NCBI GenBank assembly: GCA_021201825.1
Contig: JAJQED010000001.1
Coordinates: 27,785-91,784 of the forward strand
Length of the DNA: 64,000 nucleotides
Direction of reading: 5' to 3'
Source: Alistipes sp.
GTDB lineage: Bacteria > Bacteroidota > Bacteroidia > Bacteroidales > Rikenellaceae
The translations under genes and the position numbers were made by a program. This document shows positions 28,072 to 47,870 of the stretch, in pieces; the first letter of the stretch is position 1; each line of letters opens with the position of its first letter. The notes under the pieces are model-generated. The model was not told where the DNA came from. It ran no database searches and saw only the letters and a list, made by a program, of their open reading frames with translations.

Positions 28072-28248
28072 CTTTCAGCCGGGAAAGTAGTATAATAATG
28101 CCTGCCGTCCGCGCCGTAAATTATCTCCTTAAAAAACTCGAAACGATTGGCCTCTAAGGGAAAGATTTTTTAAAGCAGTGAAGTTAAGGCAACGATCACC
28201 CATTCGGGCGTTATTTAAGTTGCCACCGATCCGCGTGCCGATAAAACT

Positions 28249-28304
28249 AAAAAATGGCTTACAGATAACTGTAAGCCATTTTTACTGTGCCCAGGACGAG
28301 ACTC
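28249..28304. repeat. attL: direct repeat of the tRNA-Leu 3' end plus its terminator hairpin
   Basis: 28271-28304 (gtaagccatttttactgtgcccaggacgagactc) is identical to 47081-47114. Flanking 28249-28270 matches 47059-47080 with a few mismatches. Confidence 0.8.
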
Positions 28305-28426
28305 ACAGAATACAAAACTACCCAAAACTTTAAAATCAAAATAATTCTATATAATTCATATTATCAAATAATTACATTTGAATTGTTTTGAATTTGTTTC
28401 GAGGCAAATTTGACGTTTTTATAGGT

Positions 28427-28448
28427 TTGCGGTCGCGGTGCGGTCGCG
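28427..28448 (+). repeat. tandem 11-mer (ttgcggtcgcggtgcggtcgcg), candidate integrase arm site (left)
   Basis: The same tandem motif recurs in the same orientation at 47029-47052, at the other end of the element. Confidence 0.4.
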
Positions 28449-28505
28449 AAAATTTGTTAATCCCCAAACTATTATATATGTTTGCCTTAACGAAACTATA
28501 GTGTT

Positions 28506-29885: not shown

Positions 29886-29932
29886 CTACACATTGTCAGT
29901 TATTTATATTTATTTTGCGAAAACGGCACATT

Positions 29933-30913
29933 ATGAACAAAGGAGAAATAATAATATATCAGACACAGGACGGCCAGACTCAACTCGATGTTAAAATCGA
30001 AGATGAAACCGTTTGGCTGAACCGCCAACAGATGGCGGATTTGTTTGACAGGGATATAAAGACCATCGGCAAACATATAAACAATGCCTTACAGGAAGAA
30101 CTCAACGGAATTCCAACTGTCGCAAATTTTGCGACAGTTCAACAAGAAGGAAAAAGGCAGGTTGAAAGACAAATAGAGTTTTATAACCTTGATATGGTTA
30201 TATCGGTCGGCTACCGGGTAAAATCCAATCGTGGCATCCAGTTCCGTATATGGGCCAACCGTGTACTGAAAGAGTATCTGGTTAAAGGCTACGCGATCAA
30301 TAATAAGATGCAGGCGGAACAACTGGAGAGCATGAAAAATGCCGTTCGCTTGATGTCGAATGTTCTCGAATCACAATCCCTATCTGGTGATGAGGCCACC
30401 GGCTTGCTAAAAGTTATCCGTGATTATACCTACGCTCTTGATACTTTGGATCGATACGACTACCAGGAACTCACTATTGAAAATACCACAACAGAGGAGC
30501 CGTTCCGGGCCACATACGAATCGGCCATGAAAGCTATCGAGGAATTGAGGGATAAATTCGGTAGCGGAGGTCTGTTCGGGAACGAAAAAGATGGTTCATT
30601 CAAAAGCTCCATAAATACAATTTACCAGACTTTCGACGGACAGGAATTATACCCAAGCATTGAAGAAAAAGCGGCCATGCTTCTTTACCTGGTCGTCAAA
30701 AATCATTCTTTCTCTGACGGTAACAAACGTATTGCCGCGTTTCTGTTCCTATGGTTCCTCGAAAAGAACGGTATTCTGTATAAAAATGATGGAAAGCAAC
30801 TTATTGCAAATAACACGCTTGTTGCTTTAACTCTGATGATAGCTGAAAGCAATCCCGACGAAATGGAGGCGATGGTTAAAGTTGTTGTGAATCTAATTAA
30901 CAAAAGCAATTAA
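29933..30913 (+). CDS. RhuM-like N-terminal domain fused to a Fic/Doc domain
   Basis: The N-terminus has IIYQTQDGQTQLDVKIEDETVWLNRQQMADLF...YNLDMVISVGYRVKSNRGIQFRIWAN (RhuM-like). The C-terminus has the Doc-type Fic motif HSFSDGNKR. Confidence 0.75.
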   Translation: MNKGEIIIYQTQDGQTQLDVKIEDETVWLNRQQMADLFDRDIKTIGKHINNALQEELNGIPTVANFATVQQEGKRQVERQIEFYNLDMVISVGYRVKSNRGIQFRIWANRVLKEYLVKGYAINNKMQAEQLESMKNAVRLMSNVLESQSLSGDEATGLLKVIRDYTYALDTLDRYDYQELTIENTTTEEPFRATYESAMKAIEELRDKFGSGGLFGNEKDGSFKSSINTIYQTFDGQELYPSIEEKAAMLLYLVVKNHSFSDGNKRIAAFLFLWFLEKNGILYKNDGKQLIANNTLVALTLMIAESNPDEMEAMVKVVVNLINKSN

Positions 30914-30915
30914 TA

Positions 30916-32154
30916 ATGAATAGAATAGTGCTTATAGGGAACGGATTCGATAAAGCACATGGTTTACCAACTGGCTATAAAGAATTTATGGATAGTTATT
31001 GGACAGATTTTTCTTTAAATATATATAGCGGAAGCGCGGTTAATGACTATGAGGATGAGTTTGTTACATTTCATAATGGATCTCAAAGTGCTAAACTTAA
31101 AAGCAGTGTTAAACCATCTTATAATTTAAATTCCTATACAAGTCTCATAAAATATATTGGAGAAAGTAGACCACAAAATACTACTCATAATTACGGCATA
31201 TCATTCAAGAATAATTTTTGGAAACACATTACCCAAAGAACCTCTCTCAATAGTTGGCTTGATATAGAGAACGAATATTATTATTTGCTCAAAAGTTATT
31301 TGAAAGATGATAAACAAGGTGAATTAGTTCGAAAGCTCAATGAAGAATTTTCTCAGGTCAAGAAATTACTTGAAAAATACTTGACAAATGTTAGCATAAA
31401 AGAAGTTAAGAAGATTGACTCAATTGAAGAAGCATTTAGATCATTGCCTATTCATAAAGATGATGTTGGCTTATCAAAATTACAAATGTTTTGGGGTACT
31501 TTATCTGACGAGATTGATAGAGTTAAGAATATAATCAGGAGTGGAGGTCAAGAATATCACTTTGCAAAATTGAAAACCGACGAAGAATTAGATGAGGAGA
31601 TAAAAAGTGTTAGTGAAGAGAAAGGAATATTTCCTATGAGGACTTTATTCCTTAATTTTAATTACACCAGCACAGTTGAGAAATTGTATCTGCGGCCTGA
31701 TGATGATTTTGTTATCAATATTCATGGAGAGTTAAATAATCCAAAAAACCCGATTATTTTTGGATATGGAGATGAATTAGATGACGATTATAAAGACATA
31801 GAGAAGACCAATGATAATAATTTTATGGAAAACATGAAACACATACATTATTCTAATACGGATAATTACCGTGCGCTGCTAATGTTCTTGCAGCAGGAGC
31901 CATATCAGGTTTTTGTAATGGGACATTCATGCGGGAATTCAGATAGAACTTTACTCCAAACTATTTTTGAGCATACAAACTGCGTATCGATAAAACCTTT
32001 TTATTACCAATGGAAAGATGCAGAATGTCAAGAAATTAAAGATAACTACACAGAAATATGTAAAAACATATCGCGAAACTTTAATGATAAAAAATCTATG
32101 AGGGATATTTTAGTAAATAAGGTTTATTGTAAACCATTATCTCCTATATCTTAA
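30916..32154 (+). CDS. AbiH-like abortive-infection family protein
   Basis: 412 aa. Four motifs were seen: IGNGFDKAHGLPTGYKEF, NFNYTSTVEKLY, NIHGE...IIFGYGDE and VMGHSCGNSDRTLL. Confidence 0.65.
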   Translation: MNRIVLIGNGFDKAHGLPTGYKEFMDSYWTDFSLNIYSGSAVNDYEDEFVTFHNGSQSAKLKSSVKPSYNLNSYTSLIKYIGESRPQNTTHNYGISFKNNFWKHITQRTSLNSWLDIENEYYYLLKSYLKDDKQGELVRKLNEEFSQVKKLLEKYLTNVSIKEVKKIDSIEEAFRSLPIHKDDVGLSKLQMFWGTLSDEIDRVKNIIRSGGQEYHFAKLKTDEELDEEIKSVSEEKGIFPMRTLFLNFNYTSTVEKLYLRPDDDFVINIHGELNNPKNPIIFGYGDELDDDYKDIEKTNDNNFMENMKHIHYSNTDNYRALLMFLQQEPYQVFVMGHSCGNSDRTLLQTIFEHTNCVSIKPFYYQWKDAECQEIKDNYTEICKNISRNFNDKKSMRDILVNKVYCKPLSPIS

Positions 32155-32197
32155 TAACTTAGAAGGACATATTAAAAAAAGATTATATCTTTGATGT

Positions 32198-32803
32198 ATG
32201 CCCAACAAGGATAAATACATACCTTGGATAGGGGTCGGTATTGCTTCATTGGTACTGGCTTCCATAGGGCGGTATGTTGCCTTGCAACATGACGCGGATA
32301 CAGGGACAGCCAATCTTGTGTTTGTTATTGTTTTGGTAAGTATCGGCTTATTGTATGTCCTTTCTATAGAATTATTAGAGCCGATATTCAAATGTATTTT
32401 TAAACGTATAAGGGTAAAACCGAAGTACTGTACATCATTACCTGACGATGCTGTGCTGAAAAGTAAGATCGAATCTTTCTGTCAATATTCCGATGAAATT
32501 TTGGCAGGATATATACCGGACGAAGAAATGCCGCTATTGCACCGCTATATTGAGCAATACGCTAAAAGTAACACGGGCGACGTGCCGCAGAAGATTACGA
32601 CGACTGGATTAGATAACTTTGAACTCTACCACTACGGTTGGAATATTTGGAACCACTTTGACGTGATGGAGCAGCCGGAAACCGCTGATTGGCTTATCGC
32701 TGTTTTCTCCAAGCTATCAAAATCCAAGCGAACAATCTATAAGAAATTTAAGCACGATGGTCGGGACACATATAAAATACCAATAGAACCGAATATAAAA
32801 TAG
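32198..32803 (+). CDS. hypothetical 2-TM membrane protein
   Basis: 201 aa. Two N-terminal hydrophobic helices (WIGVGIASLVLASIG; LVFVIVLVSIGLLYVL) are followed by a soluble domain with no recognised motif. Confidence 0.45.
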   Translation: MPNKDKYIPWIGVGIASLVLASIGRYVALQHDADTGTANLVFVIVLVSIGLLYVLSIELLEPIFKCIFKRIRVKPKYCTSLPDDAVLKSKIESFCQYSDEILAGYIPDEEMPLLHRYIEQYAKSNTGDVPQKITTTGLDNFELYHYGWNIWNHFDVMEQPETADWLIAVFSKLSKSKRTIYKKFKHDGRDTYKIPIEPNIK

Positions 32804-33004
32804 CAACCGGAATAAATCGGCTACGAAGGGATTTACAGCAATGTAAATCCCTTTTGCTTTTTATTTCTTTTATAAATAGTCGGTTACAAATGGGGATTGA
32901 AACACCCAACAAAAACTTTTTCCCCGCAATTACTCCTCGTACTCTTGTCCCGGATTCACACGAATCTGCCTGTAAAGGCTTTGTAAAACTTTAAAACTTT
33001 TGTT

Positions 33005-33313
33005 ATGAATTACAAAGAATTGCTGGAGTCCGGGGCGAACGTAAGCGTTACCGTTGGACTGGATGACCTGCGAGAGATTTTTAAAGAGACCGTCAGCGGT
33101 CTAAAACCCGAATCGGCTCATCCGCAACCGGAAGAATTTCTAAGCCGTAAAGAGGTTCTGGCCTTACTGCAAATCGACTCTTCAACCTTATGGAATTGGG
33201 AAAAGACAGGTTATATAAAGTCTTTCCCCTTCGGTGGCCGCAAACGGTATAAACTGGAAGATGTCGAGGCAATCCGCACAGGGAAGAAAGGAGGACGCAA
33301 TGGAAAACAATAG
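33005..33313 (+). CDS. helix-turn-helix (MerR/excisionase-like) DNA-binding protein
   Basis: 102 aa. LSRKEVLALLQIDSSTLWNWEKTGYIKSFPFGGRKRYKLEDVEAI matches the Xis/MerR-type HTH pattern. Confidence 0.6.
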   Translation: MNYKELLESGANVSVTVGLDDLREIFKETVSGLKPESAHPQPEEFLSRKEVLALLQIDSSTLWNWEKTGYIKSFPFGGRKRYKLEDVEAIRTGKKGGRNGKQ

Positions 33314-34214
33314 TAATATTGCCGAACTCAAGAGAATCAGCATCCGTCACTACTTATCCAGGCGAGGAATAAACCCTCAAACAGTTAAACCCGGCTACGG
33401 ATTTTATTTTTCACCGCTGAGGAAAGAAACAGACCCCAGCTTCAAAGTAGATTGGAACGCTAACCTATGGCACGACTTCGGAACCGGCGAGGGCGGTAGC
33501 ATTATCGATCTTGTAGCCCGGATGGAGAACTGCTCCGTCGCCGACGCGATTCACCGACTGGAGAAAGAGATTCCCGATTCCGAAAGGGTATCGACCAACC
33601 GCCAACTCTCTGTCCCCGACCAATCACGTATTGAAATATTCTCAGTCGGTAAGCTCCAGCATCTGGTCCTGCTCCAGTATCTAAGCGACCGAGGGATAGA
33701 CCTGCCAGCCGCACAGAAATATTGCAATGAGGTAAGGTATCAGTCCGGTAGCCACCCTTACTTCGCTATCGGATTTAAGAACGATGCCGGAGGTTGGGAA
33801 CTACGAAACCGTGCCTTCAAAGGGAGCAGTACACCGAAGAATATAACAACCATCGACAACGGTTCCGATACGGTCATGGTATTCGAGGGTTTTATGGATT
33901 TCCTCTCTTATCTCTCACTGAAAAATAGTCCGTCGCCGTCCATCGACACAACGGTACTCAACTCCGTTGTCAACCTTCAAAAAGCCGTGCCGTTTCTCGA
34001 ATCCCACCGCACCGTTCATGCCTTTCTTGACAACGACGAATCAGGACGAAAAACGGTCGCCGAAATAGATAAGTTATTACCCAAATCCGAAGTTGTGGAT
34101 CAGTCTAAATTCTATCAAAATTACAAAGACTTGAACGACTATCTCCGGAACAATCGAACGCATAAATCACAGCCAAAATGCCCGGTGAGAAAGAAAGCAG
34201 GCCGCAAATTATAG
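33300..34214 (+). CDS. Toprim-domain primase-like protein
   Basis: The ATG at 33300 gives MENNSNIAELKRISIRHYL.... The C-terminal half has VMVFEGFMDFLS...FLDNDESGRK (Toprim E...DxD). Confidence 0.65.
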   Translation: MENNSNIAELKRISIRHYLSRRGINPQTVKPGYGFYFSPLRKETDPSFKVDWNANLWHDFGTGEGGSIIDLVARMENCSVADAIHRLEKEIPDSERVSTNRQLSVPDQSRIEIFSVGKLQHLVLLQYLSDRGIDLPAAQKYCNEVRYQSGSHPYFAIGFKNDAGGWELRNRAFKGSSTPKNITTIDNGSDTVMVFEGFMDFLSYLSLKNSPSPSIDTTVLNSVVNLQKAVPFLESHRTVHAFLDNDESGRKTVAEIDKLLPKSEVVDQSKFYQNYKDLNDYLRNNRTHKSQPKCPVRKKAGRKL

Positions 34215-34266
34215 GCGTCTTCGGCTTATCTGCAACCGGAGAGTTTTCGGGCGGTAGCAAGTTTGT

Positions 34267-34336
34267 GTTTTGTGTACCACAAAACCCCGCTTCGCGGGAA
34301 ACTTGCCCTGCGGGGCAAGCGACTTTTTAAGTCGCT
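34267..34336 (+). other. candidate oriT: four consecutive hairpins upstream of mobC
   Basis: The stems are 34267-74/34278-85, 34286-90/34294-98, 34302-08/34313-19 and 34318-24/34330-36. Confidence 0.4.
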
Positions 34337-34391
34337 GTCCGGCTATCTCGTTGGTCTCCGCCGGACTTTGTCTGACAGTTAAAATTAAGTT

Positions 34392-34760
34392 ATGAGCAAG
34401 AATAAAAAAGGTGGCCGTCCGAAGAAAAGTGCCACTCAAAAATTAAAACACAGGGTTGCATATATGCTTCCGACCATAGAATATTTTGCCCTCAAAACGA
34501 GAGCTAAAAATGCCGGAATTTCTCTGGCAGAAATCTCCCGTAGAGCCGTGACGGATTGTAAAATTATCCCGCGTCTTACGCCCGACGAATCCGGCTGAAT
34601 ACGACAACTCTCCGGGATGTCGAACAACTTGAATCAGATCGCACATCAGGCCAATATCGCAGGTTATCCTCAAGTCAAAAATGAAATGGCAGAGCTGGCG
34701 GAAGAAATAAGAACCATAAAAAACTTGCTTAAAGATGATGGGAAAGATAAGAAGCGGTAG
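34392..34760 (+). pseudogene. mobC: MobC-like relaxosome accessory gene with an in-frame TGA (codon 69)
   Basis: ...IIPRLTPDESG-TGA-IRQLSGMSNNLNQIAHQANIAG...KDDGKDKKR*. The conserved NNLNQ(I/L)A motif lies after the stop, in the same frame. The end overlaps the relaxase start. Confidence 0.65.
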
Positions 34761-35721
34761 TTCTTTCGGTGGCTGTGTAAAGTATGCAGCTACAAAAAAG
34801 GATGCGGAACTTATCGGAGCCATGGGAGTCGAACTCAAGAATTGGAGAACGATTGCCGAAAGCATGGAGTTGCAATCGCAGATGAACCCGAGGCTTGGGA
34901 AGAAAGTAGGGCATATCTCCCTCAATTTTTCAGTCCAAGACAAAGACAGGTTAACCAATGAATATATGGTGAAGGTGGCAAATGAATATATGTACAAAAT
35001 GGGAATCCGTGATACGCAGGCCGTTGTTTACCGTCACTATGACCGGGAGCATCCGCATTGTCATATAGTTTACAACCGTGTTAGTAATTCTGGCAAGACG
35101 ATATCCGATAAGAAAGAGAGAATACGCAACATGAAAATCTGCCGTCAACTGACCGAAGCGCACGGACTCTATCTTAAGAAAACTGATGCCAAACAGAATG
35201 TAAAACAGGATCGTCTTATAGGCAGGGATAAGATTAAGTACGAAATATATCATGCCATCAAAGACGGATTGCAAATGGCTAAAAGCTGGCCGGAACTTAA
35301 ATCTTATTTACATAAGCAAGGGATAACGACCGACTTTAAAACCAAAGGAAAAACAGACGTGGTACAAGGTGTCGTTTTTACTAAAGGTAATCAAAAGCCG
35401 TTCAACGGCTCGGAGATCGACAGACAATTCAGCTACTCGAAACTCTCGGCTTTGCTTAACGAAAATGCAAAACAGCATAACCAGACCGGAACGGTAAGTG
35501 TTCAGACAGAGCAAAGCCAAAGGCAAGTAATTAAACCCGTACAAAACCCCACCGAGCACACTTACCCGAAACCGCAATTCACGCACGAACACTCTGCCGG
35601 TTCCGGATTAGCTGGTTTATTTAATATCCATCCGTCAGGCGATAGTTATGACGAAGGTGCGGCAGAACTGGAAAGAGAATTAAAAAAACGTAAGAAAAAG
35701 AAACGAGGTCGTTCGATATAA
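34735..35721 (+). CDS. relaxase / mobilization nuclease (MobA/VirD2 family)
   Basis: 328 aa with the HYDREHPHCHIVYNRV histidine triad. The N-terminus is GSSFGGCVKY. Confidence 0.85.
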   Translation: MMGKIRSGSSFGGCVKYAATKKDAELIGAMGVELKNWRTIAESMELQSQMNPRLGKKVGHISLNFSVQDKDRLTNEYMVKVANEYMYKMGIRDTQAVVYRHYDREHPHCHIVYNRVSNSGKTISDKKERIRNMKICRQLTEAHGLYLKKTDAKQNVKQDRLIGRDKIKYEIYHAIKDGLQMAKSWPELKSYLHKQGITTDFKTKGKTDVVQGVVFTKGNQKPFNGSEIDRQFSYSKLSALLNENAKQHNQTGTVSVQTEQSQRQVIKPVQNPTEHTYPKPQFTHEHSAGSGLAGLFNIHPSGDSYDEGAAELERELKKRKKKKRGRSI

Positions 35722-35819
35722 GTCGAACGGGCGGCTTCACTGAGCATAGCCCGTTGTCAGCCGGAGGCTGGTGCGGATTAAGCGCAGCGAAGTAACAATA
35801 AAAAGAAAAAACGATAAAT

Positions 35820-36374
35820 ATGAGTAAAGAACTTGATGCTGTTTCCGGAATGTTCGAGGAACAAATGGAAATGATAAAACAGATTTTAAAGAATCAGCAG
35901 ACCACCGGAGAGATAAACTTTAACCCGGAGCAGCTTGCCGAAGTACGCGAACTATCCGAGGCCGTAAAGAAAGCGGCCCGTAATCCAGACCAAACCGTAA
36001 TCCATAATCACAAGCATAGGATTGTATTTCCACCGTCCGATAGTGTTATATGGCATATTACCCTCATAACACTAATTGTTATCCTTGGATTTCTTGTTAA
36101 AAGACAGCATAATACTCTAATCAGATTTGAAGATAATGACCTCAAATACCGCTACATCGAAATGCGTGGTTCTGCTGAACCGGAAGAAATTTTAATGCTT
36201 CGGGAAATATTCGATTATAACAGGAATAAAGAACAAATCCGAGTAATCCGTCAAAAGGTAAACCAATATGAAAAGTTAATTCGGGAGCAGGCTGAGACGG
36301 AAGCACGGGCAAGACTGAATGCCGCTGAAGCGGAAAGGTTAAGAAATGAAGCGGAGACGGTAAAGGGTAAATAA
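35820..36374 (+). CDS. hypothetical membrane / coiled-coil protein (third gene of the mob block)
   Basis: 184 aa with a central TM (WHITLITLIVILGFLV) and a C-terminal charged coiled coil. Confidence 0.45.
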   Translation: MSKELDAVSGMFEEQMEMIKQILKNQQTTGEINFNPEQLAEVRELSEAVKKAARNPDQTVIHNHKHRIVFPPSDSVIWHITLITLIVILGFLVKRQHNTLIRFEDNDLKYRYIEMRGSAEPEEILMLREIFDYNRNKEQIRVIRQKVNQYEKLIREQAETEARARLNAAEAERLRNEAETVKGK

Positions 36375-36382
36375 TTGTGGAA

Positions 36383-36643
36383 TCATTCCTCGATTTCAAA
36401 AGATGATTCCATGCCGTTGAGCAATTCGGATAAAGATATTTTATAGTATTTACAAATGAGAGCAAGATTAGATAAAGATACGTTCACCAAAGCCTTTTCA
36501 TATCTGTAAATACTGATTTTTAATGTCTCATCAATTTTCTCGTTGGTTATATTTTGCTCAAGACGCAATTCTCGAAGACGCCTCCCAACCTCAATCAACA
36601 GAGCCTTATCTTTTCTAACAGTCCTTTTTTTTGTTTTTGTCAT
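36383..36643 (-). CDS. XRE-family HTH transcriptional regulator
   Basis: The ATG at 36643 gives MTKTKKRTVRKDKALLIEVGRRLRELRLEQNITNEKI...LSNLALICKYYKISLSELL. Confidence 0.75.
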   Translation of the reverse strand: MTKTKKRTVRKDKALLIEVGRRLRELRLEQNITNEKIDETLKISIYRYEKALVNVSLSNLALICKYYKISLSELLNGMESSFEIEE

Positions 36644-36661
36644 TCGCAAATATTTATACAT

Positions 36662-36693
36662 ATACGTAGTTTTTATCTCTACGTACACGTAGA
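36662..36693. promoter_or_regulatory. candidate operator: ACGTAG half-sites upstream of the XRE gene
   Basis: The palindrome tctacgt-ac-acgtaga (36678-36693) plus a third half-site tacgtag (36663-36669) lie 20-50 nt upstream of the ATG at 36643. Confidence 0.4.
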
Positions 36694-36801
36694 AATAAAA
36701 ATGAATTTCTATCTTTGAGCATTCATTAATTCAGACTATTAGAAGTTATATGTTATCTTTGCGGGAACATTGCAATTCGCCTTAACGCAAGAGCGAACTA
36801 T

Positions 36802-37050
36802 ATAAAGGGTAAACGACCTTTATGCCTCACTGTAAACTCGCGACTATCGAGAGATAGGTTTCCGGCTGGCTTAAATGTTGTTGAAACCCATGAGTATACC
36901 CTGACCTTAACGGTCGGGGTAACTCTGGGCGCAGGACAACATACCAGCCAAGGCTCGCGAGGCCGACAGTGAGGAATGTTGCTCCTGCGTTCCTCTTTTC
37001 TAACTGGAGTAGTGAGCAATTTCCAATTCACTAATCTAACTCCAAGCCTT
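36802..37050 (+). ncRNA. candidate structured RNA or leader upstream of the SLOG gene (strand uncertain)
   Basis: Nested complementarity was seen: 36825-33 cctcactgt with 36966-74 acagtgagg; 36837-43 ctcgcga with 36955-61 tcgcgag; 36857-62 ggtttc with 36883-88 gaaacc; and a 10-bp hairpin 36897-36906/36912-36921. Hairpins also occur at 36802-36823 and 37006-37044. Confidence 0.3.
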
Positions 37051-37563
37051 ATGACTAATATTAATCCCGCTACTACCGTAGCGTTCACTGGTTACCGCCC
37101 CGGTAAAATCAAAAAGTCAGATCCAGATAATAATTTCCTTTTCGCCGAAATACAGGTACGTCTTCTCGGTACCATTCACAAACTTGCAGAGCAGGGTTAT
37201 AAAACATTCTTGTCCGGCATGGCCGCTGGTTTCGATCTCATGGCCGCAAGCGCGGTTCTTCTCGCAAGAAACACATACCCTGAAATCGAATTGATATGCG
37301 TTGTGCCGTTCCCGGATCAGGCGTTCAACTTTGCTCCTTATTGGAAAGTGGAACACAGCAATATATTACGGCACGCACAAAGGTGTTTAACCCTATTCGG
37401 AAGTTATCATCGTAGTGTGTACCACAGGCGGAATGATTTTTTGGTTGAGAACAGTTCCGTATTGGTATGCTATTATGACGGTCAGCCAGGCGGAACACAT
37501 TACACAGTTACTCTTGCCCAAAGACGGGGATTGGAAATAATCAATCTTTTCGGCTCAGAATAA
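37051..37563 (+). CDS. SLOG-fold protein (DUF1273 / YpsA-like)
   Basis: ATG at 37051. VAFTGYRP...FLSGMAAGFDLMAA...CVVPF...YYDGQPGGTHYTV matches the DUF1273 pattern, as I recall it. Confidence 0.65.
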   Translation: MTNINPATTVAFTGYRPGKIKKSDPDNNFLFAEIQVRLLGTIHKLAEQGYKTFLSGMAAGFDLMAASAVLLARNTYPEIELICVVPFPDQAFNFAPYWKVEHSNILRHAQRCLTLFGSYHRSVYHRRNDFLVENSSVLVCYYDGQPGGTHYTVTLAQRRGLEIINLFGSE

Positions 37564-38011
37564 GTATGGATAAAAGGATCGGCAAGAAGTGCTATCCGTA
37601 TGTGCGCTCAGTTTTGCAATGAGGAAAAGCAAGCACACTTTTCCCGGCGACAAGAGCAATTCCTTATTTATCTGTTATACTGAATCAGAGCATGGCATTA
37701 AAGGTACCGGCCGGTCACATTGCCAGAAAAGTTAAAGCAGATTTTAATTTGTAGAATGAGATTTGAGTCCGGGATGGAAACCTCGACTTCTTGCGATCCT
37801 CTTCCATCTATTTTATCAATAACCTCTCCCACTCTATAACATCTATATTTTTCGAAATAATATATATTGAGGATGTAGCTTTCACATTCTCAGTATTTTT
37901 GTTATTTTTACCGCTATTAATTCAGCCGAGAGAGGCCTCAACTTTATCTTTTTAAATTTATCTGGCCTCTTTCTGGAATAATACTAATCCTATTAATATA
38001 GCGGGTAATAT

Positions 38012-39574
38012 ATGGCAAAGAAAAACGGAAATGCTGCGGAAGAACCACTTGAGAAACAACTATGGAAAACGGCTGATAAACTCCGCAAAAATATAGATGC
38101 TGCTGAATACAAGCATATCGCGTTAGGACTTATATTCCTGAAATACATCTCCGATGCCTTCGAAGAATTATATACACGACTTAAAGCGGAAGAAACAAGC
38201 GGAGCCGACCCCGAAGATATCGACGAATATAAAGCCGAAAATGTTTTCTTTGTTCCGAAAGAGGCCAGGTGGGATTTCCTGAAATCCCAGGCAAAGCAAC
38301 CTACCATTGGTAAAACAGTGGATGCTGCGATGGATGCCATTGAGAAAGAAAACAATTCTCTAAAAGGCGTACTCCCTAAAGTTTTTGCGCGTCAGAACCT
38401 AGACCCCACAAGCTTAGGAGAATTGATCGACCTTATAGGGAACATTGCTTTGGGTGATGCGAAAGCACGAAGCGCCGATGTATTGGGTCATGTATTTGAA
38501 TACTTTCTGGGCGAGTTTGCCCTTGCCGAGGGAAAGAAAGGCGGACAGTTCTACACGCCCCGAAGCGTGGTTGAACTGTTGGTCGAAATGCTCGAACCCT
38601 ACAAAGGGCGGGTTTTCGACCCTTGCTGTGGATCGGGCGGTATGTTCGTACAATCGGAGAAGTTTGTCACCGGTCATCAGGGACGGGTAAACGATATTTC
38701 GATCTACGGCCAGGAGAGCAACCAGACCACATGGCGGCTGTGTAAAATGAACCTGGCTATACGGGGGATCGACAGCTCGCAGGTAAAGTGGAACAACGAA
38801 GGTTCGTTTCTTAACGATGCCCACAAAGACCTTAAAGCCGATTATATCATCGCCAATCCACCGTTCAATGTGAGCGATTGGGGCGGCGACCTGTTGCGTA
38901 AGGATGGCCGCTGGTAATACGGCACACCACCGACGGGTAACGCTAACTTCGCGTGGCTGCAACATTTTATCTATCACCTTTCACCCTCCGGACAGGCGGG
39001 CGTGGTGTTGGCCAAAGGGGCGCTGACCTCCAAGACATCCGGCGAGGGTGAGATCCGCAAAGCGTTGATCGAAGCCGGGCTGATAGACTGTATCGTCAAC
39101 CTGCCAGCCAAACTGTTCCTTAATACACAGATACCTGCTGCACTGTGGTTCCTTAGCCGCAACCGGACAAATGGCAGTTTCCGCAACCGGAGCGGGGAGA
39201 TTCTTTTCATCGATGCCCGCAATCTCGGTCACCTGATCAACCGCCGCACACGGGAACTATCCAATGGCTCGGAGAATCCGGAAGATAACGATATAGGCCG
39301 CATCGCCTCCACTTACCACAACTGGCGCAATCCAGACGGGGAGTACACAGATGTGGCGGGATTCTGCGCTTCGGTTCCTGTTGAACGTGTGAAGGAACTG
39401 GACTATGTATTGACCCCGGGTCGTTACGTAGGCTTGCCGGACGAGGAGGAAGACTTCAACTTCAAAGAACGGTTCACCGCCCTGCGCGCGGAACTGGAAG
39501 AGCAACTGAAAGAAGAAGCCCGGCTGAATGAGATTATAGCCGCTAACCTTGCTAAAATCAAAGTCAATGAGTGA
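38012..39574 (+). pseudogene. hsdM: type I R-M methyltransferase subunit HsdM with a single in-frame TAA (codon 302)
   Basis: ORFs 38012..38917 and 39002..39574 are in the same frame. The junction reads [62 protein letters not shown], with no other stop. Confidence 0.9.
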
Positions 39575-39833
39575 AATAAAAACAGTTAATAGAACTATAC
39601 ATCCCGATACCCACAAGGAAACAATTTCCTATCGGGTGAAAATTGGGAAGAAAAATTATTACAATCAATTAGTTGTCAACATTGATCACGACAACTATGG
39701 CTTTATAGGCACTTATGTATTCTCAAGAGATGAGATTGCAAATTATGAGAGCATACATTTTAAGGCATTAGATACGGATAACGGCGTTAAAATAGAATGG
39801 CTGCAGAACTTAAAATTTGAGATAATCAAATGA
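39567..39833 (+). CDS. small hypothetical protein (88 aa) between hsdM and hsdS
   Basis: The ATG at 39567 overlaps the hsdM stop (ATGAGTGA) and the stop overlaps the next start (ATGA). The composition is beta-rich and no motif was recognised. Confidence 0.45.
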   Translation: MSEIKTVNRTIHPDTHKETISYRVKIGKKNYYNQLVVNIDHDNYGFIGTYVFSRDEIANYESIHFKALDTDNGVKIEWLQNLKFEIIK

Positions 39834-40204
39834 GAGAGTGGGTAATCATCGCGCCGATTGTTTTGTCGGTAGTGGCTATTGTTGTGGCTATCGTGTCGTC
39901 GCGAAAAACTTCGATTCTTGCACGAAAACAGATAGAATCGCTAAAGGAATTATCGCGATTGAAGATTGAGTCAGCACTATTATTGGCAGAAGAAGAGTTG
40001 TCTAAAGCGCAGATTGAATATGAGGCTGTTTTGCAAGAGATGCGGACAGGAGAACAGCAGCAGGGCAATAAGATTCTTGACATTGGGGCTGCCACCCTAT
40101 GTAAAAAGAACTATGAGGACTCTTATGCACATATCCTGCAAAGCCATAGATTCCGGATAGATAAATTGCAAAAGAAGGTTGAAGAATTAAAAGCAAAATC
40201 ATGA
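39830..40204 (+). CDS. small TM plus coiled-coil protein (124 aa) between hsdM and hsdS
   Basis: N-terminal TM (WVIIAPIVLSVVAIVVAIV) followed by heptad-like charged helices. It has ATGA overlaps with both neighbours. Confidence 0.45.
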   Translation: MREWVIIAPIVLSVVAIVVAIVSSRKTSILARKQIESLKELSRLKIESALLLAEEELSKAQIEYEAVLQEMRTGEQQQGNKILDIGAATLCKKNYEDSYAHILQSHRFRIDKLQKKVEELKAKS

Positions 40205-41376
40205 GTGAGTGGAGGGAACATAGATTTTCTGATTTCGTCGATGTAAATCCACGAGTATTGCTGCCGAAAGATGAGAGCATTTCTTTTGTTGAGATGAAAG
40301 ATCTCAACGAAAGTATAAGGTATTGTGTGGCCTCACAGGAAAAAAATCTGTCCGGAGGTAGTAGGTTTGAAGAAAGGGATACTCTTTTTGCCCGAATAAC
40401 TCCTTGTCTGGAGAATGGGAAAATATGTCAGGTAAAAAGGCTTAAAAACGGGAAAGGCTTTGGCTCAACTGAATTTCATGTTTTTAGAGGACGAGATAAA
40501 ATATCTGATTCTGACTTTGTTTATTATTTATCTCGATGGGATGATGTCAGAAGCCATGCTGAAATTAATTTAGACGGAACGTCTGGAAGACAAAGAGTTC
40601 CGAAGCAAGCTTTTGATGATTTAATCCTTACTCTCCCTCCCCTTGCCGAGCAACGTGCGATAGCGGAGGTGTTGGGGAGTCTGGATGATAAGATCGACCT
40701 GCTGCACCGTCAGAACGCCACCCTCGAAAAAATGGCCGAAACCCTTTTCCGCCAATGGTTCATCGAACAAGCAAAACCGGAATGGGAGGAGAAAAGTCTT
40801 AAAGAAGTTACAGATATTGCGATTGGTAGAACTCCTCCAAGAAAAGAATTTCATTGGTTCTCAAATAATCCATTGGATGTAAAATGGATTTCAATTAAAG
40901 ACTTAGGAAATGACGGCATATTCATATCAAATACCTCTGAATATTTAACAAGAGATGCTGTTAAAGCTTTTAAAATACCTGTAATTCCCTCGAATACGGT
41001 TGTTCTTAGCTTTAAAATGACTGTGGGTAGAGTTGCTATTTCTTCAGAAACAATGACTTCAAATGAAGCTATTGCACATTTCAGATTCAACAATGAAACC
41101 CCTTTTACGAAGGAATATCTATATATTTTTCTTAAAACTTACCCTTATGATATTCTTGGTAGTACATCATCAATAGTTACAGCAATTAATTCGGCAATGA
41201 TTAAAGACATACAAATCTTAATTCCGGACAATACTACAATGGAATTATTTCGCCAAAAATCCGAACCGCTATTTATCAAGATAAAATCCAATCAACAACA
41301 AATCCGCACCCTTACCACCCTGCGAGATACGCTGCTGCCAAAGCTAATGAGTGGCGAAGTAAGAGTGGAAATATAA
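40201..41376 (+). CDS. hsdS: type I R-M specificity subunit HsdS (two TRDs)
   Basis: The central conserved helix is LPPLAEQRAIAEVLGSLDDKIDLLHRQNATLEKMAETLFRQWF. The C-terminal conserved helix is LRDTLLPKLMSGEVRV. Confidence 0.85.
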   Translation: MSEWREHRFSDFVDVNPRVLLPKDESISFVEMKDLNESIRYCVASQEKNLSGGSRFEERDTLFARITPCLENGKICQVKRLKNGKGFGSTEFHVFRGRDKISDSDFVYYLSRWDDVRSHAEINLDGTSGRQRVPKQAFDDLILTLPPLAEQRAIAEVLGSLDDKIDLLHRQNATLEKMAETLFRQWFIEQAKPEWEEKSLKEVTDIAIGRTPPRKEFHWFSNNPLDVKWISIKDLGNDGIFISNTSEYLTRDAVKAFKIPVIPSNTVVLSFKMTVGRVAISSETMTSNEAIAHFRFNNETPFTKEYLYIFLKTYPYDILGSTSSIVTAINSAMIKDIQILIPDNTTMELFRQKSEPLFIKIKSNQQQIRTLTTLRDTLLPKLMSGEVRVEI

Positions 41377-41388
41377 ACTCAACAAGGT

Positions 41389-42681
41389 ATGGAAGAAGAT
41401 GTATTATTGCTCGTTTATAAGCAAGTCCTTGAAAATATAGAGGGTGGCGAAAACCATCTTCTGATTGCCAATGGATTCAATCGCGGTCTTGGAATAAACA
41501 CAGGTTATCCGGCTATCTTTCAAAGAATGGCTGAAAACAACAGAGGTGTTTATCACGAAGCCATGCCCATGATGGAAGAGTGCTGCTTTGATCTTGAGGC
41601 GCTCATAGGGAAATTAGAGAATGACATTGCCGATCACAACCAGTTTCTTAAAAAATACGTCAGAAATAAAGTCAAATTCGACTTTATGCAAGCTACTCAT
41701 GAAATCGTAAAGTCTGAAATAAAAAATATTTACGCAGAAAAGAATGAGGGTGTTTTTCTCTTGTTGAGAAACTTCGATAGTTATTTCTCGTTGAATTATG
41801 ACTCATTTCTCTATTTATTCTTACTTAAACACAAGTCTTTAAAAAGTGGCGAGAAGAACGCAATAGCTTTTCAGCCAACCATTCAGTTTATCGAAGAGGA
41901 TATAGACGCAAGCCAAAATGATATATATACTGAAATTAAAGAAGCGAGAACTAACGGCACACTTAAAGTTACTCTTGGCGAAGATGCATCAATGGAAAAA
42001 CGACTTTGTAACGTAACAAAAAGCCATTTTGTGAAAGAAGTAACAGAGTATTCCAAAACCTATAAAAAAGGCTGGAAAACAAAAGATATTACCAGAGTTG
42101 TTGATGCTATTTTTGAAGAAGAAAAGAGAAATGCACTGATAGAGCGTGTAGATGATGGTAGCAGGCCGATTCAGCAAAGTTTGTTTAGTGGTGGGACAGA
42201 GTTCGTTTTCGACCCAAAAAGCAAAACTCAAAATATTTTTTTTCTTCACGGAGCCTTTCATATTTACAAAGACGGGGATCGCGTAAAGAAGATAACTCAA
42301 CAATCCGATAAGGCACTATATCAGAGGCTGGAGGAAGTCATTAATGACGATCAAAAAGAAATCGTTTGCGTACTTCAGCACACAAACAAAACCGACGCGA
42401 TTAATGATAACGACTACCTGATGAATTGCCTTAATAAGTTGGGGGAGCTAAAAGGAAGTTTAGTAATCATCGGCTGCTCATTATCGGATAATGATGATCA
42501 TATTTTCGAAAAAATAAATAACTCTGAGATTAAAACGATTTACCTCTCTACTTTATCTAAAGAGAAAAGCAAAAATTACAAATTAGCAAGAAAAAAGTTT
42601 CCCTCAAAAGAGATTTACCTATTTGACGCAGAATCAATTTCATACGAATTAATTGAAGAAAAGATATTATGCCCCGCATAA
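41389..42681 (+). CDS. DUF4917-like protein (AbiH/SIR2-like motif set) inserted between hsdS and hsdR
   Basis: 430 aa with LLIANGFNRGLGINTGYPAIF, SLNYDSFLY, FFLHGAFHIY and VIIGCSLSDNDDHIF. It overlaps the hsdR start by 13 nt. Confidence 0.6.
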   Translation: MEEDVLLLVYKQVLENIEGGENHLLIANGFNRGLGINTGYPAIFQRMAENNRGVYHEAMPMMEECCFDLEALIGKLENDIADHNQFLKKYVRNKVKFDFMQATHEIVKSEIKNIYAEKNEGVFLLLRNFDSYFSLNYDSFLYLFLLKHKSLKSGEKNAIAFQPTIQFIEEDIDASQNDIYTEIKEARTNGTLKVTLGEDASMEKRLCNVTKSHFVKEVTEYSKTYKKGWKTKDITRVVDAIFEEEKRNALIERVDDGSRPIQQSLFSGGTEFVFDPKSKTQNIFFLHGAFHIYKDGDRVKKITQQSDKALYQRLEEVINDDQKEIVCVLQHTNKTDAINDNDYLMNCLNKLGELKGSLVIIGCSLSDNDDHIFEKINNSEIKTIYLSTLSKEKSKNYKLARKKFPSKEIYLFDAESISYELIEEKILCPA

Positions 42682-45600
42682 CCGAAAACAGTATAGAGGA
42701 ATTCTGCATCGAACGGCTGGAGAGCATCGGATATAAATATATCTACGGTCCCGATATCGCCCCGGACAGCGAAACTCCTGAGCGCGACAATTACCAGCAG
42801 GTACTATTGCTTGATCGGCTGCGCCATGCGGTCAGGCGGATCAATACTGATATCCCTGCCGACCAACAAGAGGAAGCCATTCGGCAGATTCAACGTATAG
42901 CCTCGCCGGAGCTGATCGCAAACAACGAAACTTTCCATCGCTACCTTACTGAAGGGGTTCCTGTCAGTTATCAAAAAGATGGTGGCGAGCGCGGAGACAG
43001 AGTTTGGTTGGTGGACTTCGAGAATCCGCTAAACAACGATTTCCTTGTGGTCAACCAATTTACAGTGGTAGAGAATGGACACACGAAGCGCCCCGATGTC
43101 CTGTTATTCGTTAACGGGATCCCACTGGTGGTAATGGAACTAAAAAACGCAGCGGATGAGAACGCAACGGTTAATTCGGCGTTCCGGCAAATCGAAACCT
43201 ATAAAGCCCAAATACCCTCGCTGTTTACCTACAATGCCATATGTGTTATATCCGACGGGCTGGAAGCTCGCACAGGCTCCATTTCCGCCGGGTTCAGCCG
43301 CTTTTTGGCGTGGAAGACGGCCGACGGCAAGGCCGAAGCGTCCCATCTGGTTAGCCAGCTTGAGACAATGATCTGCGGAATGCTGAACCGTAAAACGCTG
43401 CTCGACCTTGTAGGCCATTTTATAGTGTTTGAGAAATCTAAACAGGAAGATCCGCAAACGGGAATAGTAAATATAAATACAGTCAAAAAAATAGCCGCCT
43501 ATCACCAATATTACGCTGTGAACCGAGCGGTGGAATCGACACTTCGAGCTTCGGGTTATAAAAAAACACCACTATCCAATATAGTCTGTGAAGCGCCGGC
43601 GACTTATGGAGTGCCGGGAGTTGAACAGCAACCCGTTGGCGACCGCAAAGGTGGCGTGGTATGGCATACCCAGGGCAGTGGCAAATCTTTGTCGATGGTA
43701 TTCTATACCGGCAAACTGGTACTGGCTATGGACAATCCTACGGTAGTTGTTATCACAGACCGTAACGATCTCGATGACCAGCTATTCGACACATTCGCGG
43801 CCTCAAAGCAATTGCTACGGCAGACCCCGGTGCAAGCAGAAAACCGTGACAATCTGAAAGAACTGTTGAAAGTAGGTTCAGGAGGAATTGTATTTACAAC
43901 CATACAGAAATTCAATCCCGAAGAGGGTAATGTATATGAGCAGTTGTCCGACCGTGAAAATATCGTCGTCATAGCCGACGAAGCCCACCGTTCGCAATAC
44001 GGATTCCGTGGTAAAACGGTGGACGACCGGAACGGTGACGGCGAGATAGTCGGCAAGAAAACCGTTTACGGCTTTGCCAAATATATGCGAGATGCACTCC
44101 CTAACGCGACGTATCTAGGTTTTACCGGTACTCCTATAGAAAGCACCGATGTAAACACTCCGGCAGTATTCGGCAATTATGTCGATATATACGATATAGC
44201 GCAGGCAGTGGAAGACGGTGCAACTGTAAGAATATATTACGTGAGCCGTCTTGCAAAGGTCGCATTGAGCGAAGAAGGGCGTGAGTTGGTGGAAGAGTTG
44301 GATGATAATCTGGAACAGGAAGACTTGACCGATACTCAAAAAGCCAAAACCAAGTGGACGCAACTCGAAGCCTTAATTGGAAGTGAGAACCGAATACATA
44401 ATATAGCCAAGGATATTATCTCTCATTTTGAAAAACGGCAAGAGGTATTCGAGGGTAAAGGGATGATAGTTACCATGAGTCGCCGTATTGCTGCCGAACT
44501 TTATGATGCAATAATAGCACTAAAACCCGAATGGCATTCGGATGACCTGAACAAAGGGGTAATTAAAGTTGTTATGACAACCAGTTCCTCAGACGGGCCG
44601 CTGATAGCCAAACATCACACCACGAAAGAACAGCGTGGCCGACTGGCCGACAGGATGAAATCACCGGACGATGAGTTGAAACTTGTGATAGTTCGCGATA
44701 TGTGGCTTACCGGTTTTGACGCGCCGAGTATGCACACGCTCTATATCGACAAACCGATGAAGGGCCACAACTTGATGCAGGCAATAGCCCGGGTAAATCG
44801 CGTCTATAAAGACAAGCCCGGGGGATTGGTGGTTGACTATCTGGGTATAGCATCTGACTTGAAAAAAGCACTTTCCTTCTACTCAGATTCCGGTGGCAAA
44901 GGTGATCCTGCCATAGCACAAGAGCAGGCGGTGAGCATAATGCTTGAAAAATTGGAAGTCATATCCAATATGTTGCACGGATTTACGTATGTAGATTATT
45001 TCGAAGCGGATACTGCAAAAAAACTATCTACGATTCTTGCTGCCGAAGAATACATTTTAGGATTGAATGATGGTAAGAAACGTTTCCTAAACGAAGTTAC
45101 GGCCCTTTCCCAAGCTTTTGCCATTGCCGTTCCGCATGACCAGGCGATGGATGCAAAAGACGAGGTTGCTTTCTTTCAGGCAATTAAAGCCCGCCTAGCC
45201 AAATTCGACAACTCTGGTTCGGGACGAACCAACGAAGAATTAGAAACCACTATTAGGCAAGTAATAGACAAAGCTCTGGTTACGGATCAGGTAATAGATG
45301 TATTCGATGCCGCCAGACTAAAAAAACCTGATATTTCTATTCTCTCCGAAGAGTTTATGGGGGAACTCAAAGGGATGGAACACAAGAATGTAGCGTTGGA
45401 AGTATTAAAAAAACTTCTTAACGACGAGATACGGGACCGTGCGAAAAAGAATCTGGTGCAAAGCAAATCGCTTATTGAAATGCTTGAAAACTCCATTCGT
45501 AAATATCACAACAAGATACTTACTGCTGCTGAAGTTATAGAAGAGTTAATCAACCTGAGTAAGGATATCGTGGAGATGGACAACGAGGCCAAAGTGATGG

Positions 45601-45896
45601 GCTTGACCGATTATGAATATGCTTTTTATACGGCAGTTGCTAATAACACCAGCGCAAAGGAACTGATGCAACAGGAAAAATTAAAAGAATTGGCAGTGGT
45701 ACTAACCGAAACAATCCGGAATAATGCGTCCATTGACTGGACAATAAAAGAGAGTGTCAAAGCTAAATTGAAAGTTTCGGTAAAACGTCTTCTCCGCCAA
45801 TTCGGTTATCCACCGGATATGCAAATGTTGGCAACGGAAACTGTGTTGAAGCAGGCAGAAATGATAGCGGAGGAATTGATTAAAGATAATAGATAA
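42669..45896 (+). CDS. hsdR: type I restriction enzyme R subunit
   Basis: 1075 aa. It has an N-terminal nuclease-like region (PDVLLFVNGIPLVVMELK), helicase motifs HTQGSGKS and VIADEAHRSQ, and FDAPSMHTLYIDKPMKGHNLMQAIARVNR. Confidence 0.95.
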   Translation: MPRITENSIEEFCIERLESIGYKYIYGPDIAPDSETPERDNYQQVLLLDRLRHAVRRINTDIPADQQEEAIRQIQRIASPELIANNETFHRYLTEGVPVSYQKDGGERGDRVWLVDFENPLNNDFLVVNQFTVVENGHTKRPDVLLFVNGIPLVVMELKNAADENATVNSAFRQIETYKAQIPSLFTYNAICVISDGLEARTGSISAGFSRFLAWKTADGKAEASHLVSQLETMICGMLNRKTLLDLVGHFIVFEKSKQEDPQTGIVNINTVKKIAAYHQYYAVNRAVESTLRASGYKKTPLSNIVCEAPATYGVPGVEQQPVGDRKGGVVWHTQGSGKSLSMVFYTGKLVLAMDNPTVVVITDRNDLDDQLFDTFAASKQLLRQTPVQAENRDNLKELLKVGSGGIVFTTIQKFNPEEGNVYEQLSDRENIVVIADEAHRSQYGFRGKTVDDRNGDGEIVGKKTVYGFAKYMRDALPNATYLGFTGTPIESTDVNTPAVFGNYVDIYDIAQAVEDGATVRIYYVSRLAKVALSEEGRELVEELDDNLEQEDLTDTQKAKTKWTQLEALIGSENRIHNIAKDIISHFEKRQEVFEGKGMIVTMSRRIAAELYDAIIALKPEWHSDDLNKGVIKVVMTTSSSDGPLIAKHHTTKEQRGRLADRMKSPDDELKLVIVRDMWLTGFDAPSMHTLYIDKPMKGHNLMQAIARVNRVYKDKPGGLVVDYLGIASDLKKALSFYSDSGGKGDPAIAQEQAVSIMLEKLEVISNMLHGFTYVDYFEADTAKKLSTILAAEEYILGLNDGKKRFLNEVTALSQAFAIAVPHDQAMDAKDEVAFFQAIKARLAKFDNSGSGRTNEELETTIRQVIDKALVTDQVIDVFDAARLKKPDISILSEEFMGELKGMEHKNVALEVLKKLLNDEIRDRAKKNLVQSKSLIEMLENSIRKYHNKILTAAEVIEELINLSKDIVEMDNEAKVMGLTDYEYAFYTAVANNTSAKELMQQEKLKELAVVLTETIRNNASIDWTIKESVKAKLKVSVKRLLRQFGYPPDMQMLATETVLKQAEMIAEELIKDNR

Positions 45897-45910
45897 ATTT
45901 TGAGTTGATA

Positions 45911-46999
45911 ATGAACATAGTTTTCTTAGTCGGAAATGGCTTTGACCTGAATCTGGGAATGAAAACCCGATATGGTGATTTTTATGATTATTATTTAGCA
46001 AAGTCACCTACTGAGAGTACCACCAATATTCATCAATTACAGAGCAATCTTAAAGAAGATAGGGAGAATTGGTCAGATTTAGAAGAGGCGCTTGGGCAAT
46101 ACATTGGAAGAATTGAGGCTGAAGAAGCAGTGCAGATTCATACCCATCTAGTGAAAGAGTTGGCCCAGTATCTTTTAAAAGAAGAAGATAAGTACATAAT
46201 TGACAATAGCCATCAAGGCATATTTTATGAACACTTAGTCAATCCCGAGAATCTCTTGTTGCCACTTGAGACGCGGGATATAAAAAACTTTAAAGACAAC
46301 TGGAGTAATCATAATTGGGATATAAAAATTATTACTTTCAATTACACTAAATCACTGGAAAAGTTATTAGCATATGAAAACAAAGCTCTAAAAATTGGAA
46401 CCCACGGAAATAATCCAAGCCGAGCAATAAATGTATCTGAAATTGAGCATATTCATGGTTTTCCAAACAATAGAATGGTATTAGGTGTCAATGATTTTAC
46501 ACAAATAGGCAATGAAAAACATCAGGAGGTAAGAATAATCAGGAATAAATATATTAAACCTCATTGTAATAGTACTTACCGACTTGGGCATGAAACTAAG
46601 TGTGTTCAGTGGATTGGGCAAGCTGACTTATTTTGTGTATTCGGGTTATCTTTTGGTAACACAGATAAGTATTGGTGGGAGGCAGTTGGGAAGAGAATTG
46701 CGAATGAAAATGTTAAAATGATTATATTCTGGAATGACCCAAATTCTTTATTTTCGGGTAACGAGGGCCCAGAGAGAGTAGAAAGAGAAGATGAAATCAA
46801 AGATTATTTTTTATGCAAAACAGGATTAGATGAAATAAAAAAGGAGAAAATAAAAGAACGAATTTATGTTGGTTATAATACCGAATTCCTTAAAGTAAAA
46901 TTACTACTTAAAGAAAGTATTTCTTCTAAATCAAAAGATAAATCTAATATTCCGCTTCACGGTATAGGGCACATTAACCTGCCGACTAAAACAAGTTAA
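45911..46999 (+). CDS. AbiH-like protein immediately downstream of hsdR
   Basis: ATG at 45911. Motifs are VGNGFDLNLGMKTRYGDF, TFNYTKSLEKLL, HIHGFPNNRMVLGVND and VFGLSFGNTDKYWW. Confidence 0.6.
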   Translation: MNIVFLVGNGFDLNLGMKTRYGDFYDYYLAKSPTESTTNIHQLQSNLKEDRENWSDLEEALGQYIGRIEAEEAVQIHTHLVKELAQYLLKEEDKYIIDNSHQGIFYEHLVNPENLLLPLETRDIKNFKDNWSNHNWDIKIITFNYTKSLEKLLAYENKALKIGTHGNNPSRAINVSEIEHIHGFPNNRMVLGVNDFTQIGNEKHQEVRIIRNKYIKPHCNSTYRLGHETKCVQWIGQADLFCVFGLSFGNTDKYWWEAVGKRIANENVKMIIFWNDPNSLFSGNEGPERVEREDEIKDYFLCKTGLDEIKKEKIKERIYVGYNTEFLKVKLLLKESISSKSKDKSNIPLHGIGHINLPTKTS

Positions 47000-47028
47000 G
47001 ACGAAATAAAAACGACTAAAATCAACAC

Positions 47029-47052
47029 TTGCGGTCGTGGTGCGGTCGTGGC
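47029..47052 (+). repeat. tandem 11-mer (cttgcggtcgtggtgcggtcgtgg), candidate integrase arm site (right)
   Basis: Matches the motif at 28427-28448 with C/T differences, in the same orientation, about 7 nt from attR. Confidence 0.4.
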
Positions 47053-47058
47053 AGAAAT

Positions 47059-47114
47059 CAAAAATGGCTTTCAGAAATCTGTAAGCCATTTTTACTGTGC
47101 CCAGGACGAGACTC
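47059..47114. repeat. attR: direct repeat overlapping the tRNA-Leu 3' end
   Basis: See attL. The 34-nt identical core is 47081-47114, of which 47098-47114 is the tRNA 3' end. Confidence 0.8.
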
Positions 47115-47181
47115 GAACTCACACGGCCTAACGGCCACTACCCCCTCAAAGTAGCGTGTCTACCAATTCCACCACCTGGGC
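47098..47181 (-). tRNA. tRNA-Leu (anticodon GAG), type II with a long variable arm
   Basis: Manual fold of the minus strand: acceptor GCCCAGG/CCTGGGC plus discriminator A; D arm GTG..CAC; anticodon stem CTACT/GGTAG with loop TT-GAG-GG; variable stem GGCC-GTTA-GGCC; T loop TTCGAGT. Confidence 0.85.
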
Positions 47182-47870
47182 AATAATTACGGAGTGCAAA
47201 GATATATATTTTTTGATATTTCCAAGGCTTCCAGTGTGTAACCGGCCGTAAAATTTTTTTATAAGCCGGAAAACCCGGCCCTGTGAAAAATTATTTCGGC
47301 ACCGTTATACTCTTCGCTGCCCCACTGGAGCCCTTATTAACACAGCAACCGATAGTAAACATTCCCCGTTTTGCCGACGGTGATGCGGGTTGGTCCGTCA
47401 CGGGTAAAGGGGTATCCCCGATAGAAATGCCGTTGTCCGCCGGGGCCGTATATACCGGGACAGTACATTCCTTGAAAAAGGCATGTACACCGTAAAATGT
47501 ATCGTCAAGGGTAGAGGCTATTCCTTTATCGGGAGGTATACCGGCGGTATGGAAATAAAAGTGAAATTACGGTCCCGGGGGATAAAAGACCCGGATGCTA
47601 TGTTCGACAACCCGGACAACCCCCTGTACCGTGAATGGATCGGCGGAAAAGAGATCGGGGTGGTTTGTATCGTTATCGAAAAAAAGGAAGAACAGCCTCG
47701 CGCCGGCAAAACCCGGGGGCGGCAAACCTTTGGAATTTAAGGGATATTGATTACTTTTGCAACCGCAAGCGCTTATGGGGTCCTTTCCCGCAGGATAGTG
47801 ACTGAGTGGCGCCCGAGGGTAATAACGCATGGCAGGCCTTTGTCGGGCCCGGCCGCAGAAAAGATTAAAG

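Follow-up and report, generated by a model that had tools for sequence, protein, structure and literature searches.

Type I restriction-modification (R-M) enzymes methylate DNA as an M2S1 assembly and restrict it as R2M2S1, as in the EcoR124I structures, and this architecture implies that without HsdM neither the methylating nor the restricting complex would be able to form. Spontaneous nonsense, deletion and insertion alleles of hsdM that inactivate the Type I R-M system are well documented, for example in group A Streptococcus strain 854, in which they were selected during transformation (PMC8084154). The locus described here resembles those alleles in having a single inactivating hsdM lesion in an otherwise complete hsdM-hsdS-hsdR locus and, as with classical and spontaneous hsdM nulls, modification and restriction would be expected to be lost without self-killing. 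It differs from strain 854 in that the genome is that of an uncultured member of the Rikenellaceae with a predicted phenotype, and in that the operon contains embedded accessory genes and an hsdR missense change.

At the protein level, the best comparisons are with solved Type I subunits. The HsdM sequence matches 3KHK, whose annotation goes no further than 'Type I methylation subunit', with 465 bits (E 2.7e-138), the HsdM of EcoR124I/II (7BST_D) with 133 bits (E 1.2e-37) and that of EcoKI with 66 bits, and by bit score (133 versus 66) it is nearer to Type IC (EcoR124I) than to Type IA (EcoKI). Both 3KHK and 7BST have the same domain order as our HsdM, namely HsdM_N, the NPPF core and then GNANFAW. 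In 3KHK, the position of the stop codon described below belongs to a variable loop in which 8 residues are inserted, and it is there that the protein encoded here ends.

The gene lies in the window, by which we mean the whole stretch of 64,000 nucleotides that was analysed, and belongs to a mobile element inserted at a tRNA gene:

28245 to 47114, no strand assigned: integrated mobilizable island of 18.8 kb, which carries the R-M system
47097 to 47181, minus strand: tRNA-Leu(GAG), the integration target, with its 3' end inside the right-hand direct repeat

Direct repeats of 60 nt, 92% identical to each other, mark the two ends of the island (28245–28304 and 47055–47114), and GC content is 32–49% within it, as against 50–58% in the flanks. 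The island encodes an integrase, a RhuM/Fic gene, two AbiH genes, a primase, mobC, a MobB-like relaxase and a YpsA-SLOG gene; the defence cargo beside the Type I system comprises the two AbiH genes, a DUF4917 gene (PDC-S21), RhuM/Fic and YpsA-SLOG. Chromosomal genes have their best matches, at 72–84%, in Rikenellaceae and Alistipes metagenome-assembled genomes (MAGs), which places the host in the Rikenellaceae. The R-M genes form an operon of seven genes, linked in a chain in which stops and starts overlap or nearly abut, with the operon partners hsdS and hsdR on the same strand as hsdM:

38012 to 39574, plus strand: hsdM, Type I methyltransferase subunit with one nonsense codon; HsdM_N, DPCCGSGG at residues 203–210 and NPPF at residues 282–285
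39567 to 39833, plus strand: orf88, a small gene of 88 aa, soluble-looking, whose start overlaps the end of hsdM
39830 to 40204, plus strand: orf124, 124 aa, with ATGA overlaps with both neighbours
40201 to 41376, plus strand: hsdS, specificity subunit of 391 aa with two target-recognition domains, full length
41389 to 42681, plus strand: DUF4917 (PADLOC PDC-S21) candidate defence gene, between hsdS and hsdR
42669 to 45896, plus strand: hsdR, restriction/translocase subunit of 1075 aa, uninterrupted over its full length and with every domain present
45905 to 46999, plus strand: last gene of the operon, of the AbiH family

Translation of 38012–39574 gives 521 codons with a single internal stop (...DGRW*YGTPPTGNANFAW...), in agreement with the initial annotation, which had been made from the sequence and its open reading frames and had reported one in-frame TAA in hsdM. 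The lesion divides the gene as follows:

38915 to 38917, plus strand: in-frame TAA, hsdM codon 302; CAA (Gln) in the sister allele
38918 to 39574, plus strand: untranslated 3' part of hsdM, 218 codons, covering N6_Mtase model positions 154–311 and keeping 116/117 highly conserved positions

HsdM_N (PF12161) is complete, spanning residues 13–142 and model positions 1–135 of 135 (E 1.1e-26), and the core of a gamma-class N6-adenine methyltransferase is present, with the AdoMet motif I DPCCGSGG and the catalytic NPPF. The stop lies 17 codons 3' of NPPF, and the Pfam domain N6_Mtase (PF02384) is read in the same frame on both sides of it, from model positions 2–150 before to 154–311 after, which bears out the earlier description of a stop shortly after NPPF in an otherwise open frame. 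Functional HsdM has an uninterrupted frame of about 510–525 codons, which this gene lacks. In the window, hsdM is a single gene interrupted by a single codon, and it belongs to the HsdM family by descent, but as a pseudogene.

Comparison with intact orthologues, which the initial annotation had proposed, returns a sense codon at the stop position in the sister allele and in all 83 related loci, which come from many phyla (CAA 53, AAA 12, CAG 11, other sense codons 7, stop 0). The lysine that the initial annotation had suggested for homologues at this position is not the usual residue, which is glutamine (64/83 relatives, with lysine in 14/83 and other residues in 5/83), and the sister allele has CAA. 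The position itself is variable: the 83 loci have Q, K, L, N or V, and the protein alignment adds R, A and T. Elsewhere, the read-through HsdM is highly conserved: of the 321 alignment columns with 95% conservation or more in 77 relatives it deviates at one (D480E), and downstream of the stop it retains all but one of the 117 highly conserved positions. The nearest intact hsdM compared at the DNA level has 92% amino-acid versus 78% nucleotide identity. By this comparison, the family is under strong purifying selection and has been so historically. The distribution of the family points to one Type I lineage having spread very widely by horizontal transfer. Related loci in Bacteroidota, Pseudomonadota, Desulfobacterota and even archaeal MAGs (Methanophagales, Methanosarcinaceae) encode HsdM proteins with about 80% identity or more, and this hsdM was found in none of 24 same-genus or same-family genomes searched.

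Alleles were compared by exact-protein look-ups of Logan contigs. Contig SRR15221321_15329 (9,370 nt, window 37739–47108), which may derive from the same reads as the window's genome, has zero mismatches to the window, TAA included. From a sister run, contig SRR15221362_373 (9,136 nt, window 37834–46969) carries the same seven-gene operon with an intact hsdM of 520 aa. This sister allele, in which the genes follow one another as in the window, differs from it at 4 positions in 9,136 nt (99.96% identity):

38320: window G, sister A; synonymous change at V103 of hsdM
38915: window T, sister C; codon 302 of hsdM, TAA versus CAA (Gln)
44582: window C, sister T; synonymous change at T638 of hsdR
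45315: window A, sister G; codon 883 of hsdR, Arg (AGA) versus Gly (GGA)

The sister HsdM (P0139) equals the read-through of the window HsdM at 519 of 520 residues. A Pth protein, sought in the sister run as a host chromosome marker, was found in SRR15221321 only. Exact-pattern scans of genome and metagenome contig collections returned no near-identical alleles, and an E. coli collection gave no match.

Since a nearly identical intact allele exists and the part of the gene downstream of the stop is undecayed, the stop can be dated as very recent, one C-to-T transition away from CAA. This agrees with one of the alternatives offered by the initial annotation, a recent inactivating mutation. We consider it very probable that a recent nonsense mutation turned Gln302 of hsdM (CAA) into TAA, with loss of Type I methylation and restriction. 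In this explanation, a single C-to-T transition would convert codon 302 and translation would end 17 codons past NPPF, yielding an HsdM product of 301 residues. Such a product would retain motif I and NPPF, and would be without the conserved YGxPPxGNANFAW...GQAG stretch, the remaining catalytic domain and the C-terminal region that holds HsdM on HsdS in solved Type I enzymes. The earlier proposal that loss of HsdM silences the whole R-M system gains support from the M2S1 and R2M2S1 architecture, from which such an outcome would be expected. The genome (2.84 Mb, 41 contigs, rated 99.8% complete) contains no second hsdM, hsdS or hsdR; as this is its only Type I system, the cell should be r- m- for the bipartite site of the system, and we regard r- m- as the likely phenotype.

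Three other adenine-methylase-like genes were noted outside the window, on contig C3: an N6_Mtase-helicase fusion of 1,708 aa (77352–82478), an N6_N4 methylase (96921–97619) and a Dam-like D12 methylase (101893–102603). None of them is Type I, and the cluster, at about 77–103 kb, may belong to another mobile element.

The partner genes of hsdM had been described as looking intact. This stands for hsdS, which matches the PADLOC Specificity_I model end to end and is identical in the sister allele, and it stands for hsdR as an open reading frame of full length, which aligns gap-free at 89% identity to an intact HsdR of 1074 aa. It calls for a caveat at one residue of HsdR:

45315 to 45317, plus strand: hsdR codon 883, AGA (Arg); GGA (Gly) in the sister

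Gly883 is invariant in 50 of 50 HsdR relatives, and the window allele has Arg; no solved structure matched the C-terminal domain of HsdR. From this pattern of conservation, G883R is possibly a second damaging change on the haplotype with the hsdM stop, a combination that fits either relaxed selection on the operon or a second hit. Neither orf88 nor orf124 has a family match above threshold, with orf124 giving a weak match to SLATT_1 (E 0.0045) below the cut-off; by eye, orf124 has an N-terminal hydrophobic, TM-like stretch followed by a heptad-like, coiled-coil-looking remainder. Homologues of orf88 and orf124 were found in none of the 83 related hsdM loci and the DUF4917 gene in 2 of them, which indicates that the cargo embedded in these operons is variable.

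Early termination in the lead gene would probably lower the expression of orf88, orf124, hsdS, the DUF4917 gene, hsdR and the AbiH gene, given the overlapping chain of stops and starts, and the point of termination in hsdM lies 650 nt upstream of orf88. Inside the operon, scans for promoters (with the Bacteroidetes -7 and -33 motifs among the patterns) and for terminators gave counts no higher than those of shuffled controls. It is conceivable that the null allele was selected rather than fixed by drift, with silencing through Q302* and G883R favoured after entry of the island while the accessory genes were kept and internally expressed. Silencing would then avoid self-restriction during establishment or allow DNA uptake, and orf88/orf124, the DUF4917 gene and the AbiH gene would be expressed from internal signals. 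The hint in this direction is that two of the four differences from the sister damage conserved features, a number too small to separate selection from relaxed selection, and we hold selection of the null to be rather improbable.

A lower probability still attaches to the TAA being an artefact of sequencing or assembly, or the consensus having been taken from a minority variant, with CAA as the true codon. The nearly identical CAA allele in the sister run is what would be expected in that case, but the two assemblies, possibly built from the same reads, agree at every base over 9.4 kb. Moreover, the TAA is linked to three further single-nucleotide polymorphisms (SNPs) that separate its haplotype from the CAA haplotype, and is therefore part of a distinct haplotype rather than an isolated base-call oddity. 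The SRR15221321 Logan contig is unbroken across all four variable sites, from which we infer that this run holds no substantial second allele. A read error, which the initial annotation had listed as an alternative, is accordingly an unlikely source of the TAA in view of the agreeing assemblies and the three additional SNPs.

The initial annotation had also allowed for a leaky stop, with low-level read-through or suppression of the TAA giving enough full-length HsdM for some methylation. In its favour, the frame downstream of the TAA is fully preserved, and mobC in the same island has a conserved in-frame TGA with purifying selection downstream, which leaves room for some read-through in this host. 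The preserved frame is, however, equally explained by a young mutation, and neither the sister allele nor any of the 83 relatives has the stop, which is thereby no conserved programmed feature. TAA terminates 818 of the 1,594 open reading frames of at least 300 aa in the genome (51%) and is the commonest terminator, and no tRNA with anticodon TTA was found in the genome. In E. coli, a species of another phylum than the host, a T directly after TAA makes for a strong terminator context, the strongest known there. With no suppressor tRNA found and with TAA as the commonest terminator, read-through that would keep methylation going is very unlikely. A wider reassignment or suppression of the genetic code was rejected on the same counts of TAA-terminated frames and the same lack of a TTA-anticodon tRNA. 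ARAGORN reported a 91-nt 'tRNA-???' with a two-base anticodon on contig C24 of the genome (200373–200463, minus strand), which has no Rfam tRNA match and is probably a false positive.

The mobC gene (34392–34760, plus strand) encodes a NikA-like RHH domain and a MobC domain, with the in-frame TGA (34596–34598) between the two. A variant of the element, 93% identical and present in SRR15221335 and SRR15221326, has the mobC TGA at the same place; 3' of it there are 12 nucleotide differences with only 2 amino-acid changes, and the frame is open. The few amino-acid changes and the open frame indicate that purifying selection continues to act on the part of mobC after the TGA. At the position of the TGA, MobC proteins of greater distance have Leu, Ile or Tyr, and no intact mobC with Trp there is on record. 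Rather than decay, the mobC TGA suggests read-through that has been conserved, or else a gene in two pieces, possibly with a restart at Met75. Decay of the whole island with two nonsense hits was rejected, as the mobC TGA, being of old date and conserved with selection acting on the sequence behind it, says nothing about recent decay.

A further way in which activity could persist is HsdM working as two polypeptides, the 301-aa N-terminal fragment and a re-initiated C-terminal one. Gene callers annotate an open reading frame of 190 aa in the same frame, starting from the GTG at 39002, which is the first canonical in-frame start after the stop, 28 codons downstream. A start there, however, omits 28 residues, 17 of which are invariant in the alignment (G304, P306, P307, N310, N312, W315, Q317, H318, F319, Y321, H322, L323, P325, G327, Q328, A329 and G330), and no relative is split at the stop position, so that a functional two-piece HsdM is extremely improbable. 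It is just as hard to credit that the stop is one state of a reversible phase-variable switch. The on and off alleles do occur in samples apparently of one study (adjacent accession numbers), but there are no tandem or simple-sequence repeats at 37800–41400 and no inverted repeats at 37500–47200, neither the operon nor the rest of the genome offers a spare hsdS cassette or a further hsdS, and the change is a point substitution in unique sequence without an elevated reversion rate.

Recent nonsense mutation of hsdM thus remains the preferred explanation, and the allele is an ordinary, young loss-of-function allele of a well-known kind, which implies no new biology. In annotation, hsdM should here be called a pseudogene, and the strain should be predicted to be without the Type I methylation motif and the restriction barrier of the island. 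The CAA (on) and TAA (off) alleles in sister samples form a natural allele pair, which can serve as a natural control when the recognition motif is to be assigned from metagenomic methylomes. The same pair would also lend itself to the question whether genes embedded in R-M operons are still expressed once the lead gene is truncated.
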